The notes under the pieces were generated by a model, which saw nothing but the letters and a program-made list of their open reading frames with translations, was not told the origin of the DNA and did no database searches. 29,982 nucleotides of DNA from a virus, in UHGV virus genome UHGV-0183838. One strand, written 5' to 3'. Of the stretch, positions 1-17,405 are shown in pieces. The first letter of the stretch is position 1. Every line of letters starts with the position of its first letter. Made by a program: the position numbers and the translations under genes.

Positions 1-152
1 TGCGCACCTAAATCAATGACTAATGCCGATGGGTCAACTATACTTTTCACGAGTCTTTATGACCTCTCTGGGATAAATTATCCCCAACTTAATCCATCAG
101 GAAGTAACGCAATTATCAGGCGTTATTAGCCCCTATAAATAATGGAACCACT

Positions 153-380
153 ATGTCAGCCATCGACTGTATAATTACCGCTGCCGGATTATCATCAAGA
201 ATGGGGCAATGGAAAATGATGTTACCCTGGCAACAGGGGACAATTCTTGATACAAGTATCAAAAATGCGTTGCAGTTTTGTAGCCGAATTATTTTAGTCA
301 CCGGCTATCGTGGTAATGAACTGCACGAACGTTATGCGAACCAGAGCAATATCACTATTATCCACAACCCCAATAATTAA
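153..380 (+). pseudogene. mocA: 5' fragment (75 codons) of a MobA/MocA-like molybdenum-cofactor nucleotidyltransferase gene, apparently truncated at the prophage junction
   Basis: Translation begins MSAIDCIITAAGLSSRMGQW, a nucleotidyltransferase P-loop-like motif; the ORF stops after HNPNN, far short of a full-length enzyme, directly before the AT-rich att/int region. Identification as mocA is from memory of the E. coli protein, not a search. Confidence 0.5.
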
Positions 381-600
381 GCCCAAATTAAAGCTCTTTT
401 ACTCTTTCAAAATCCTTTCAGTTAATTGAGGTTGAGCTATATAACTCATTTAAATACATTTGGTTATGTGGCTTCTTTAATTGAAAATTCTTTCATGTAA
501 CTTTAAATCGATCAGTTTGCTTTCATCAAAAATCTGTACATATGCTTGTACATAATGTACAAAACAGCAGAGGTGTTTTGCGATTTGTACAAGGTGAGTA
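381..600. promoter_or_regulatory. Putative attL-proximal region and int upstream region with four palindromic TGTACA hexamers
   Basis: AT-rich non-coding stretch between the truncated host ORF and int; TGTACA at 535-540, 547-552, 556-561 and 586-591, the last 10 bp before the int ATG. Confidence 0.3.
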
Positions 601-1824
601 ATGGCGCTGTCTGATGCGTGGTTGCGTTCAGTCGTTGGAAAGGAACGTGATAAGGTTTTGGTTAAATCCGATCGTGATGGTCTGTCTGTCAGAGTATCAC
701 CGAAAGGTCGCGTAGTGTTCCAATATCGTTATCAATGGGCAGGGAAAGGTGAGCGTCTTGATATCGGAACTTACCCGGCAACTGGATTAAAAGAGGCCAG
801 AGAAGAAGTTATCCGTCTCCGTGGTGAACTTGAGTCAAACCGTAATCCACGATTGGTCAAGCAGGCTGAAAAACGAAAAGCTACTGAAGCCATGACGGTA
901 GAGTCTGTGATCCGTGCCTGGTATGAAGCATATTGTGTAAAAAATAAAAAAGGTTCTGAACAGATACTCCGCTCGTTTGAGCTGCACCTGTTCTCTAAAA
1001 TCGGGAATATCCCTCACGATGCAGCTACATTGCATGATTGGTTAGAAGTCCTGGAGCCTCTTAGCACTAAGACTCCAGCAATAGCAGACCGATTGCTAAT
1101 TAACGCAAAGCAGGCCCATGTCTGGGCGTATAAGAGAAAGCTCATTGAAACTCGCCCGCTGTCGGATATCTCGGGTAAAGATATGGATATCCGTAAAGGT
1201 CAGAAGAAACGGTTTCTGACACATGATGAAATTAAAATCCTTTATGCTGCGATCGATGGTTCTCGAATGGTTCCTAAATACCGGGCCTTCATTAAGCTAT
1301 TGCTGCATTTTGGCTGCCGTAGTTCAGAGCTAATTACTGCCAGGGTGGACGATTTTGATTTCATTAATAAGGTATGGACTGTACCACCAGAACGACATAA
1401 GACTGGAGAGATAACAGGCGAACCGCTAAAGAGGCCCATTATTGAACCGGTGGAGGAGCTTATAAAGAACGCTATCTCTATGAACAATGGTTCCGATATG
1501 CTTTTTACTAAGGAAGGAAGCAGGGAACCCGTTGGTCGAACATCATTGCAGTCGCTGCCTTACAATTTAATGCAGTACGCATGGAGGCGTTTGGGGTATC
1601 AATTCCCTCATTGGTCTCTTCATGATTTGAGGCGAACAGCACGAACAAACTTTTCTGATCTTACTGCTCCTCATATTGCAGAAATAATGCTCGGCCATAA
1701 ACTGCCAGGGGTTTGGCAGGTTTATGACAAGAGCGATTATCTAGAAGAACAGCGTAAAGCATATCAGGCATGGTGGGAGAGAGTTGAATCGATCGTTACT
1801 TGTACTGGCCCAGAATCTACCTGA
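601..1824 (+). CDS. int: Tyrosine recombinase, phage integrase (P4-like, N-terminal arm-binding domain)
   Basis: 407 aa; C-terminal catalytic-region motifs (HDLRRTARTNF, LGHKLPGVWQVYD); position next to the host junction; ATG at 601 preceded by AAGGTGAG. Confidence 0.9.
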   Translation: MALSDAWLRSVVGKERDKVLVKSDRDGLSVRVSPKGRVVFQYRYQWAGKGERLDIGTYPATGLKEAREEVIRLRGELESNRNPRLVKQAEKRKATEAMTVESVIRAWYEAYCVKNKKGSEQILRSFELHLFSKIGNIPHDAATLHDWLEVLEPLSTKTPAIADRLLINAKQAHVWAYKRKLIETRPLSDISGKDMDIRKGQKKRFLTHDEIKILYAAIDGSRMVPKYRAFIKLLLHFGCRSSELITARVDDFDFINKVWTVPPERHKTGEITGEPLKRPIIEPVEELIKNAISMNNGSDMLFTKEGSREPVGRTSLQSLPYNLMQYAWRRLGYQFPHWSLHDLRRTARTNFSDLTAPHIAEIMLGHKLPGVWQVYDKSDYLEEQRKAYQAWWERVESIVTCTGPEST

Positions 1825-2074
1825 CAGCTTGCGTAGCCCTGACAGTCTGTTTTGAGCGAACAGTGGACATTTTCAATGGCATTCTTGAGTAGGTTACGCT
1901 TAGACCAGAAGTAAGAGGTGATAGAATTATCAACAATACATAAAACATAGGGGATCCTTATTGATTTATTGATCTTGACCAACTTATGTGATGCAGTATG
2001 TCTTTAACTTGTATTACTATTATCTTTATCTTGTTGTTTCTAATAAACTTATCTTATTTCAGAAAGGAGTTTTT

Positions 2075-3775
2075 ATGCATTTAGTCACGAAATCTTATTT
2101 CGATGCCTTTTGCAAAGCATTCGCTGCGCCCTATGAGGAGACCAAAAATTTTGAGGCGTTTGTGAACTATTGTGCTTTTTCAAAATACTCAGGCGACAAA
2201 GTTGAGGTCAGTGATCTTGTGTATGAAGGCCCGGACCCTGGTATTGATGGCGCATTTTTATTTTTAGACGACAGAGCCATTTTTTCAACTGAAGAACTTC
2301 AGGAGATTTTCCAAAACTCACGTCGCGAGTTTCAAGTTTCATTAATATTCACGCAAGCTAAGTCATCGGAGAAGTGGAGCAAACAGGAAATAGACTCTTA
2401 CATTGCGTCAATAAGAGATTATCTTTCACCAGCGCCACAACAACCCCACAGTGAATATCTAGCGGACTTTAAAAAAATGTTCAACTTGATATTTGCTAAT
2501 ATCGGCAGAGTCAAAAATGGCCTTCCAGACTTATACGCATATTTTTTTAGTGCTGCACAAAATACAGAGGCCAGAGAAATAAAAGCTGCATTTGCATCGG
2601 GTGAAAAAAGCTTAAAGTCACTCGGGTTTTCACATGAAACATCCTTCATTATGGCTCACAAAGACATGATTCATGAGCTTTGGCTTGCTGCGGAAGGTCC
2701 AATAGAAGCTAAACTTCCTACAATAGGCTATGCTCCATTCCCAGCGGCCCCTAATATTAATAATGCCTATGTAGCTACAGTCAAAGCTCGTAGTTTTATT
2801 GATTCTATACTTAAAGACAAAAATGGAAACCCTCGAAAAAAATTATTCGAAGAAAATGTTAGAGATTTTCTGGGAATTGATGGTGACGTAAATTCAGAAA
2901 TTGCAGGAACACTAGATACTGATGGAAAAAAAGCAAGATTTGGTTTAATGAATAATGGAGTGACAATAGTTGCATCAAGCGTGAGGCCTGCAGGGCAAGA
3001 AATTTTTATACGAGATTTTCAAATTGTTAATGGATGTCAAACGTCTAATGTTCTTATATCAAAAGACATTCAAGTAGATGAATCAGTTAGTTTAATGATT
3101 AAATTAATTGAAACCGATGAGCCAGCGATCCTTGATGACATTGTACGAGCTACGAATAGACAATCTAAAGTTGAAGATGCACAGTTCATTTCAACGCTAA
3201 AAAAATTAAGGGAATTAGAGCATTATTTTAATGCTAAAGGTGCTATTGAAGGAAATAAAATTTATTTTGAGAGAAGAAAGGGGCAGTATAGTTCAGAAAG
3301 TATAGCTCCAGTACGCATATTTGATATCAGAGAAGTTGCGCGAGCATATGCTGCTATTGTTATGATGAGACCAGATTATTCCAGTCGTTATCCAAATAGG
3401 TTAACTGGTGACTTACTTAATGAGGTTTTCTCTTCCGATGCCCTCGAGGATGATTATTATATATCTTGCTATTGCTTGTATAGGCTAAAGGCTCTTATCT
3501 CAAATAAGAGGTTTGATGGGAAGTATTCAAAATTACGCTGGCATATTCTAACTGCTGCGTCAAAATACTGTGGTAATAATTATAAGGTTTGGGGGTTCAA
3601 AAATAAAAATGAAGCTCTTCATAACTTATTCTCAATGAATGATGGGGAGTGGTTTGAAAAACTTGAGAGTTTAGTAAAAATAGCTATACCAGATCCGGAT
3701 ATTTCTCGAGACTTACTAAAGTCGCAGCCTTTAACATCAACGATTCTCAAAAGTGTTGATAGCGTACCTAAATAA
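2075..3775 (+). CDS. AIPR-like (abortive infection phage resistance family) protein, candidate anti-phage defense cargo
   Basis: 566 aa from ATG 2075 with SD AAAGGAG at 2063-2069 (the track ORF starts upstream at 1988). Contains the motif FQIVNGCQTSNVLI, which I recall as the conserved NGxQT signature of AIPR proteins. The gene is strikingly AT-rich compared with flanking phage genes and sits between int and xis. Confidence 0.6.
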   Translation: MHLVTKSYFDAFCKAFAAPYEETKNFEAFVNYCAFSKYSGDKVEVSDLVYEGPDPGIDGAFLFLDDRAIFSTEELQEIFQNSRREFQVSLIFTQAKSSEKWSKQEIDSYIASIRDYLSPAPQQPHSEYLADFKKMFNLIFANIGRVKNGLPDLYAYFFSAAQNTEAREIKAAFASGEKSLKSLGFSHETSFIMAHKDMIHELWLAAEGPIEAKLPTIGYAPFPAAPNINNAYVATVKARSFIDSILKDKNGNPRKKLFEENVRDFLGIDGDVNSEIAGTLDTDGKKARFGLMNNGVTIVASSVRPAGQEIFIRDFQIVNGCQTSNVLISKDIQVDESVSLMIKLIETDEPAILDDIVRATNRQSKVEDAQFISTLKKLRELEHYFNAKGAIEGNKIYFERRKGQYSSESIAPVRIFDIREVARAYAAIVMMRPDYSSRYPNRLTGDLLNEVFSSDALEDDYYISCYCLYRLKALISNKRFDGKYSKLRWHILTAASKYCGNNYKVWGFKNKNEALHNLFSMNDGEWFEKLESLVKIAIPDPDISRDLLKSQPLTSTILKSVDSVPK

Positions 3776-15286: not shown

Positions 15287-15317
15287 ATGATTTTCGCCGA
15301 AGATGGCGACGTAATGC

Positions 15318-15346
15318 TTGCATTTTTCAAAAAATATGGATAAAAT
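15318..15346 (+). promoter_or_regulatory. Candidate late promoter (pR-prime-like)
   Basis: TTGCAT (15318-15323), 17-nt spacer, TAAAAT (15341-15346), directly downstream of Q. Confidence 0.45.
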
Positions 15347-15393
15347 TTTTTCAACGATGGGCTTTGTATACCCGACGTTAAGAAAAAGTAGAA

Positions 15394-15416
15394 AACCCGC
15401 TGATGAGCGGGTTTTT
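15394..15416 (+). terminator. Rho-independent terminator (tR-prime-like) about 50 nt downstream of the candidate late promoter
   Basis: 8-bp stem AACCCGCT-gatg-AGCGGGTT followed by TTTTT. Confidence 0.55.
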
Positions 15417-15708
15417 GTGCTTTAAATAGGGTAATAGAGATGTTGAATCTCATTTCGGGATTCATGTTTGTTTACTTATTATTTATCGGGTGACTTTGTT
15501 TTCTGCCTGATGTTTAAAATGTTTTCTTCCAGTACAATGTCCCTAGATACAATGAGTCTGCTTATTACATTATTAGCAGAGCTATTACGGTCAAAGTACA
15601 GCATAAGCTTTTAAAGCCAATCAACCAGTCATCAAGACAGACGGGGTTATTCATGAAAACTCTCCATGTTTGATTCGATGGGGCCTGAAATTAAAGCTTT
15701 AATATAGC

Positions 15709-15921
15709 TCATGAAAGGTAAACATTGGCAGCTGAAGGGCCACGCAGACCATTTATCCGGCAAAATTCCACGCGTAATCCGGTGGCAATTTCTTCTGCAT
15801 CGCGGAGATTGAGCGCTGAAACATGAAGCTGGACATCGATACGACCATCGGATGGGGTGATAAGACCCTTGCCGCTTTTGCCGTCAAAGGTTTTGACAAT
15901 TCCTGTCATTTTACGGGACAA
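15709..15921 (-). CDS. Cold-shock-domain protein, CspF/CspH-like
   Basis: 70 aa; [13 protein letters not shown]...[14 protein letters not shown] resembles CspF/CspH; apparent TTG start with AAGGAA upstream. Confidence 0.75.
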
Positions 15922-16221
15922 AAAAATTCCTTAATACTGATAACTGGGCGCACTATACACACCTTCCTGAAGAAAGCTATAGTTTTTTGATGGGGTTGAA
16001 GATGGCTGGATGTCTAAAATAAACATTGCTTCATATGTTCAACTATGCGTTAATGATTGCGTCGGTTTGAAGAACAGACGATATACGAAGTAGTTTACTA
16101 AAGCAGTTCTCATTTCAGGTGTTATTCACTTATTCCTTCTTTGAGTCTCTCCAATTAAGTACGAAGTCGTTTCTGTTATACAAGCCATTTATGCCGAAAG
16201 GCTCAAGTTAAGGAATGTAGA

Positions 16222-16437
16222 ATGTCAAATAAAATGACTGGTTTAGTAAAATGGTTTAACGCTGATAAAGGTTTTGGCTTTATTTCTCCTGTTGATGGTA
16301 GTAAAGATGTGTTTGTGCATTTTTCTGCGATTCAGAATGATAATTTTCGAACCTTATTTGAAGGTCAAAAGGTTACCTTCTCTGTAGAGAGTGGTGCTAA
16401 AGGTCCTGCAGCAGCAAATGTCATAATTACTGATTAA
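16222..16437 (+). CDS. cspB: Cold-shock protein CspB-like
   Basis: 71 aa; [53 protein letters not shown]... carries canonical CspA-family motifs; divergent from the CspF/H-like gene. Confidence 0.85.
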
Positions 16438-16719
16438 AATTCATAGTTTGTCTGTATACGATAACGAAGAAGGCTGATGCCTGAGTGGAGATACAGACAG
16501 AGTGGTGAATATTGGATCTCTTTAATAAATAGTAAGGAGGTCCAATACATGAAACAATGGCCAGCATATTTGGCAATAACTTAATCAGGAAAAGTATGCT
16601 AACCATTGTGGTGAAGTGCAGGTTTGCTGCATGAATAGTTTTACAGCAGAAGCTAACTGCTGGCATAGCAAAACAAAGTGCGTAAGTGGATGACTCCCAC
16701 AAAAAGCACCACAATATTA

Positions 16720-16741
16720 AACCCGCTCAGGCGGGTTTTTT
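16720..16741. terminator. Rho-independent terminator between convergent genes
   Basis: AACCCGC-tcag-GCGGGTT hairpin followed by TTTTTT. Confidence 0.5.
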
Positions 16742-16800
16742 ATTATCTGCTTTAAATATGTTATTAAAATATAAAAAATACTTGTTACGAATAAAATCAA

Positions 16801-16971
16801 TCAAGCTACAGCTTTAAGATTTGTCTGGAATACTTTGTTGCAATGAGGGCAGATCAAAAGGGCACCTTTTTGTACTCTTGAAAAACTGTGTTCTGACTCT
16901 TGGGTGCAGTTTGGGCAGGAACATTTAACGAGATAATTACGGCGTGATTTTGAGTCTTTACGTTCTGACAT
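16801..16971 (-). CDS. Small zinc-ribbon protein (hypothetical)
   Basis: 56 aa from the internal ATG at 16971; two CxxC pairs (CSCPNC ... CPHC). Confidence 0.45.
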   Translation of the reverse strand: MSERKDSKSRRNYLVKCSCPNCTQESEHSFSRVQKGALLICPHCNKVFQTNLKAVA

Positions 16972-17189
16972 AGGCTTTTCCTGTATAAATGGCCGTATAC
17001 AGTACACTAAATATGAAAACATATCTCGTATTATTATTTAATACATGATTTTCTTTTAAAATAATTACCCACATTTTTAATGTGTCTGTTTTTTAGCGCC
17101 GTTGAGAACAATGTTTGCTATAAAAACTAACCCATAGACTCCGATCTTTTCAAACATATTGCACCATCTGTGTACATCGGGGCGAGGAT

Positions 17190-17405
17190 ATGAAATCAAT
17201 GGATAAGTTAACAACAGGTATCGCCTATGGCACATCGGCTGGTAATGCTGGTTTCTGGGCATTGCAGTTACTCGATAAAGTAACTCCGTCACAGTGGGCT
17301 GCAATCGGTGTGCTGGGTAGTCTGGTTTTTGGCCTGCTGACGTATCTGACAAACCTTTATTTCAAGATTAAAGAAGACAGGCGTAAGGTTGCGAGAAGAG
17401 AGTAA
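17190..17405 (+). CDS. Class II holin (phage-21 S-like pinholin)
   Basis: 71 aa; [28 protein letters not shown]...[17 protein letters not shown] resembles S21/EssD-type holins. Confidence 0.85.

Follow-up and report, generated by a model that had tools for sequence, protein, structure and literature searches.

The left end of this stretch raises the question of why an open reading frame that begins as a MobA-like nucleotidyltransferase stops after 75 codons at the edge of a prophage, and of what brought the prophage there. The window, that is, the whole stretch of 29,982 nucleotides that was analyzed, opens with host DNA in which two features can be placed:

1 to 50, minus strand: 5' end of yqeC, about the first 17 codons, divergent from mocA (window position 1 corresponds to L001 position 1501; yqeC lies at L001 780-1550, minus strand).
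153 to 380, plus strand: truncated mocA, consisting of MocA residues 1-73 and a phage-coded Asn-Asn-stop; up to base 370 it is 100% identical to the intact mocA of loci L012 and L013.

The 75-aa frame with C-terminal HNPNN that had been described in the first-pass annotation is present at 153-380 on the plus strand, and matches the Pfam family NTP_transf_3 (MobA-like) with E=2.1e-12, over profile positions 1-67 of 160 only. Window positions 1-370 are matched at 99-100% identity by the yqeC-mocA region in more than 5,000 complete E. coli genomes. In all matching complete genomes this identity ends at base 370, and from base 371 onward the window consists of phage DNA. When uninterrupted, mocA is a gene of 579 bp encoding 192 aa, located between yqeC and ygfK, and ygfK also follows the 3' part of the gene at the far junction of the prophage. 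Based on the 100% identity and on the yqeC-mocA-ygfK synteny, the interrupted gene is identified as E. coli mocA. The allele in the window, with C at position 362, is also found in intact mocA genes such as those of L012 and L013.

The earlier proposal that a prophage sits inside a MobA/MocA-like gene was thus borne out, mocA being cut after codon 73. Codons 1-72 are of host origin, the Pro73 codon combines two host bases (CC) with one from the phage (C), and Asn74, Asn75 and the stop are foreign, which fixes the two replacement codons that had been attributed to the phage as Asn74 and Asn75. The phage arm had also been said to begin AT-rich; a drop in GC content is real but modest, with 0.40 over positions 1-800. 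That the 75-aa frame could be a natural short paralog did not hold, since it was found at phage junctions only and the junction of the window occurred in 0 of 5,426 complete E. coli genomes.

To the right of base 370 the following features were recognized:

371 to 600, plus strand: P' arm of the attachment site (attL arm) and upstream region of int, 100% identical to the arm adjoining prfC in strain 26561.
601 to 1824, plus strand: tyrosine integrase of 407 aa, heterobivalent lambda-Int type (Pfam Arm-DNA-bind_3, Phage_int_M and Phage_integrase), its DNA identical to that of the prfC-resident copy H31.
1988 to 3775, plus strand: AIPR-family cargo gene (Pfam AIPR, E=1e-43), also found after int in prfC lysogens.
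371 to 29982, plus strand: lambdoid prophage, of which the left ca. 30 kb are present before it runs off the window, with CI-like repressor, Q, lysozyme, terminase gpA, lambda-type portal and capsid E.

The integrase encoded next to the attachment site contains all of the arm-binding, core-binding and catalytic domains. The hexamer TGTACA occurs eight times in the window, and four of these copies (535-540, 547-552, 556-561 and 586-591) are clustered within 57 bp of the P' arm, just upstream of int. Four further copies lie in the opposite P arm, upstream of a phage-borne surrogate start of prfC (L011 27340-27520, minus strand; L021 1530-1660). The repeats on both arms are likely candidates for arm-type integrase sites. 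Among phage records, PhiR63_1 (48.0 kb) and Escherichia phage 2H10 (46.3 kb) come closest, and from their lengths roughly 16-18 kb of prophage are expected beyond the window. Integrase, left end and early region are held in common with Stx2c-converting phages. The interval from Q to the lysis genes (window 15300-17190) contains only ORFs of up to 95 aa and none of 100 aa or more, which leaves no room for an stx operon. The AIPR gene right after int is also kept in prfC-resident copies, loci L004 and L005 encoding AIPR proteins of 566 aa.

The distribution of the integration module among complete genomes was then compared between the two sites. The arm and int (window 371-1900) were present in 701 complete E. 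coli genomes, and a query spanning the canonical prfC attL junction was likewise covered in 701; the module was at prfC in 701 of the 701 genomes carrying it, and at mocA in none. The copy in strain 26561 (H31), resident at prfC, is 100.0% identical over the arm and int. In the loci that were read, the module lies directly after yjjG and adjoins a prfC stump of 69 bp. A prfC start of the phage's own (ATG ACA AGC ...), 21 codons long and encoding MTSLLAAEVAKRRTFAIISHP, is located at the canonical right end; at attR it is joined to prfC via the 14-bp core ATTATTTCTCACCC, and prfC is annotated as intact, with 528 aa. In the free phage 2H10 the deduced attP is contiguous, and the leader ends in ISHP-Asn-Asn-stop, forming a mini-ORF of 23 codons, MTSLLAAEVAKRRTFAIISHPNN followed by a stop, that spans the attP core (L021 1671-1742). 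On integration, its first 21 codons become the new N-terminus of PrfC, and the last two codons and the stop end the gene on the left. It is thus this mini-ORF of the phage that provides, with its tail, the two replacement codons of the window, a point that the first-pass annotation had missed, as it had the off-target nature of the insertion. The normal site of the phage, as judged from these genomes, is the 5' end of prfC, which would be left intact through the surrogate start. This is in line with the published use of prfC by long-tailed Stx1a/Stx2c phages of STEC CC119 (PMC10132054). Given the 100% identity of Int and attL arm with prfC-resident copies, the prophage is not specific for mocA.

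The crossover was located by aligning attB, attL, attR and attP in a four-way comparison. Reconstruction of attB and the core from phage-free genomes and the far junction, as the first-pass annotation had suggested, was achieved, the mocA attR being taken from other samples carrying the same attL. The sites read as follows, a slash marking the exchange point:

354 to 381, plus strand: attL core, with host ACTATTATCCACAACCC (354-370), a half-site-like ATTAT at 357-361, the crossover microhomology ACCC at 367-370 and phage CAATAATTAAG from 371.
attP: GCAATTATTTCTCACCC / CAATAATTAAG
prfC attB: GCCATTATTTCTCACCC / GGACGCCGG
mocA attB: CACTATTATCCACAACCC / AGATTATGCG
attL of the window: CACTATTATCCACAACCC / CAATAATTAAG
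mocA attR, read on contigs of other samples: ...GCAATTATTTCTCACCC / AGATTATGCGCAGGG

Exchange was conservative and reciprocal, and its position coincides exactly with ACCC (367-370), the end of the canonical Int core. Such an exchange at the end of the core is the signature of an integrase and not of illegitimate recombination or misassembly, from which we infer that Int catalyzed the insertion into mocA. To the left of the exchange point attL has CCACAACCC versus TTCTCACCC in attR, a difference of four bases left of ACCC. Codons 69-75 of mocA are ATT ATC CAC AAC CCA GAT TAT and the corresponding prfC codons ATT ATT TCT CAC CCG GAC. Against the core, mocA matches ATTAT and ACCC at the correct spacing, with five bases between them and 4-5 mismatches there. 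An identical overlap in attP and attB is a property of prfC, with its 14 common bp, and not of mocA, which shares only ATTAT and ACCC with attP and is thereby marked as a secondary site. The contiguous stretch that both sites have in common at the crossover is just four bases long, an uncommon situation for the overlap region of an Int. In attP the core is flanked by a 7-bp inverted repeat, AATTATT ... AATAATT, as read from the sequence, which may represent the core-type Int sites.

The far junction lies outside the window, and the product expected there was predicted from the canonical attR before it was looked up: a leader in frame to MocA from Asp74, 140 aa in total. A homology search with this chimera returned cluster representatives only, the chimera being hidden in the MocA cluster. 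An exact-sequence look-up found it letter for letter in public assemblies, as 21 codons of phage leader followed by MocA 74-192. In loci L014-L016 the chimera is preceded by phage YnaE and DinI genes and followed by ygfK-ssnA-ygfM-xdhD. Locus L016, with the chimera and attR, and locus L006, with attL, come from the same sample (ERR260227), and over 370 + 3010 bp L006 agrees with the window at every base. Between the attR at mocA and that at prfC, one base differs across P arm and core, and the prfC surrogate leader is still present. Thus, in place of an intact mocA rebuilt across the other junction, a chimera devoid of MocA 1-73 was found. The phage-borne surrogate, being the 5' end of prfC, does not restore the interrupted gene at mocA, where its product is this chimera.

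The event was not confined to a single assembly. The exact 75-aa product was found in eight contigs from at least five samples; attL was observed in at least five independent assemblies, the reciprocal attR in 3-4, and both junctions in one sample. The host flank of locus L008 departs from the lineage of the window by 9-19 SNPs per 3.2 kb, and the phage arm of this locus does so in 8 of 242 bases. Locus L007 carries the other mocA allele, with T where the window has C at 362; over 1,870 bp of host flank it shows 16 differences, and its arm is common to the window for about 45-55 bp only. After the arm, L007 shows the end of a minus-strand ORF (...DYLEEFE, stop) at 3265-3463. Past the first 45 bp of arm, neither complete E. 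coli genomes nor Pfam gave any hit to the L007 element, which may represent a prophage reduced by deletion, some other element or a metagenome scaffold of chimeric origin. Judged by these flanks and arms, the same nucleotide of mocA was hit at least two separate times, and probably three, and mocA looks like a recurrent secondary site, used in at least 2-3 host backgrounds and by variants of the phage. Scans of JGI metagenome contigs and of IMG/VR gave no hit to the exact mocA junction, and a search of the literature did not turn up any prophage described at mocA.

Two isolate contigs (L009 and L010) end exactly 26 bp past the junction, and L008 ends 242 bp past it. In a 31-mer assembly, a break at 26 bp would follow if the phage arm from ACCC onward had a second context in the sample. 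The ends of the three contigs fit such a second context for the arm or the start of int, and hint at a copy at prfC, a related prophage or an excised attP.

As to what makes mocA a target, overall similarity to attP was considered and rejected: mocA matches at 13-14 of 23 positions, a level reached at about 1.2e-3 of positions, or about 10^4 sites per genome. The pattern CNATTATNNNNNACCCNNA, composed of the positions common to attP and both attBs, occurs at three sites in E. coli ATCC 11775, namely mocA, prfC and yniA/yniB. The last of these, CCATTATCCTCAACCCATA (L018 1501-1519), is uninterrupted in 5,420 of 5,424 complete genomes, and in the single split case shown the break is at another position. 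The pattern was set aside as a predictor, having been built post hoc and having at yniA/yniB a site that shows no sign of use in complete genomes. It is conceivable, if rather unlikely, that mocA codons 69-75 are a preferred pseudo-attB of the whole family of prfC-targeting integrases, hit repeatedly and perhaps when prfC is occupied. If so, there would be a recurrent class of E. coli devoid of the MCD cofactor, with the prophage locked in by the mismatched overlaps of attL and attR, and the mocA site could be used to define the core positions that the integrase really reads.

With high probability, the locus arose when a prfC-specific lambdoid phage inserted at a secondary site in mocA, a rare but ordinary off-target integration. 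A temperate, lambda-like phage of the 2H10 / PhiR63_1 type would have used its own tyrosine integrase to enter mocA, codons 69-75 mimicking the prfC codons at ATTAT...ACCC and strand exchange occurring at ACCC. The attL product, in the window, consists of MocA 1-73 with the Asn-Asn-stop tail of the mini-ORF, lacking the GDMP region. The attR product, some 46-48 kb further right, would carry the phage leader in frame with MocA 74-192, lacking the N-terminal nucleotide-binding loop, and the mismatched overlaps of attL and attR would result in poor excision from mocA. Directly observed were the two junctions, an Int and attP identical to those of the prfC-resident copies, and the recurrence of the event.

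Use of the same nucleotide position in several host backgrounds would also be expected if mocA were the primary site of a phage lineage with changed integrase or attP specificity, and the prophage a regular site-specific lysogen. A lineage of this kind is very improbable, however, given that the DNA of Int and P' arm is 100% identical to that of a prfC-resident copy, that P arm and core of the mocA attR are one base away from the prfC attR and retain the prfC surrogate leader, and that all 701 copies in complete genomes are at prfC and none at mocA. The contiguous identity of only 4 bp at the crossover, together with the fact that attR is known from other samples with the same attL and not from that of the window, could suggest that the junction arose by misassembly, or else by illegitimate or RecA-dependent recombination, in place of integrase action. 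This is hardly credible in view of the repeated, independent recovery of attL and attR, with both junctions in one sample, of a break that matches the end of the canonical Int core to the base and has precise and reciprocal products, and of its recurrence at the same base in different lineages.

The insertion could also be real and the function of mocA kept, either through cooperation of the fragments or through reversible excision acting as a switch (active lysogeny). Both fragments are still ORFs, the 3' one in frame with a phage start codon, and an excision exchange at ACCC would restore mocA exactly. On the other hand, the split falls inside a single Rossmann-like domain, and a promoter scan of the plus strand upstream of the chimera found no sigma-70-like promoter. 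In addition, the four differing bases left of ACCC should hinder excision, as in secondary sites of ICEBs1 (PMC3715440), and the rarity of the junction, absent from all 5,426 complete genomes, speaks against a selected switch. Retention of function is accordingly a quite unlikely outcome, and off-target integration by the prfC-specific phage stays the preferred explanation.

Integration at secondary sites is familiar in itself; the present case is documented more completely than is usual. Lysogens of phage lambda at secondary (abnormal) attachment sites were reportedly described by Shimada, Weisberg and Gottesman in the 1970s. They resemble the mocA lysogen in the heterobivalent tyrosine integrase, the partly core-like chromosomal site, the interrupted host gene and the mismatched overlaps of attL and attR, and differ from it in concerning a laboratory strain deleted for attB and an integrase that targets gal-bio; here the host is a natural isolate, the integrase is one for prfC, and the same secondary site has been hit repeatedly in wild lineages. 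The lambdoid prophages at prfC (Stx1a/Stx2c phages of STEC CC119, and 2H10 / PhiR63_1) have the same integrase module, attP and surrogate prfC 5' end. They leave prfC intact, encoding the 528-aa PrfC, whereas the copy in the window sits in mocA and destroys it; unlike the Stx1a/Stx2c phages, it has no room for an stx operon.

The 5' end of prfC is also a target for unrelated elements. The SXT/R391 ICE reportedly integrates there too and brings along a substitute N-terminus (Hochhut and Waldor, 1999), supplying a new gene start as does the phage of the window; element and host are unrelated, and in the window prophage the surrogate start is joined to the wrong gene. The use of prfC by this ICE is also noted in PMC2786100. 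For ICEBs1, the rate of off-target integration is 1e-4 to 1e-3 of that at the primary site, even with attB present (Menard and Grossman 2013, PMC3715440), at secondary sites with many core mismatches, where attL and attR have different crossover sequences, as at mocA, and where reduced excision and a fitness cost were measured. ICEBs1 differs in being an ICE of Bacillus with a tRNA primary site, and excision and fitness effects for the mocA lysogen are inferred only.

With regard to the function of MocA, homologues whose structures have been solved align over residues 3-182 as one single domain. The insertion places the N-terminal glycine-rich loop (AAGLSSRMG) and the GDMP region in different polypeptides. 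The chimera matches NTP_transf_3 over profile positions 55-141 of 160 only, so that, with positions 1-67 in the 75-aa product, a complete domain in one polypeptide of about 190 aa is lacking; the split being inside a single domain, neither fragment holds the whole MobA-like domain. For annotation, this means that the 75-aa and 140-aa proteins are best regarded as the halves of one disrupted mocA, as opposed to new genes. A cytidylyltransferase function in MCD formation is ascribed to the MocA family by Neumann et al. 2009, as cited in a passage of PMC2997495.

These findings leave the current understanding of site-specific recombination unchanged. They provide a clean natural case of off-target integration by a site-specific phage integrase in which all four att sites are known, and in which the prfC repair module, useless at the wrong site, yields a chimeric ORF instead. 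The repeated hits on one nucleotide position constitute a small natural data set on what the integrase needs of its target. For the host, the structure of the interrupted gene predicts that the lysogen should be mocA-null and without MCD cofactor for PaoABC, XdhABC and XdhD, the activities of which would hence be lost.
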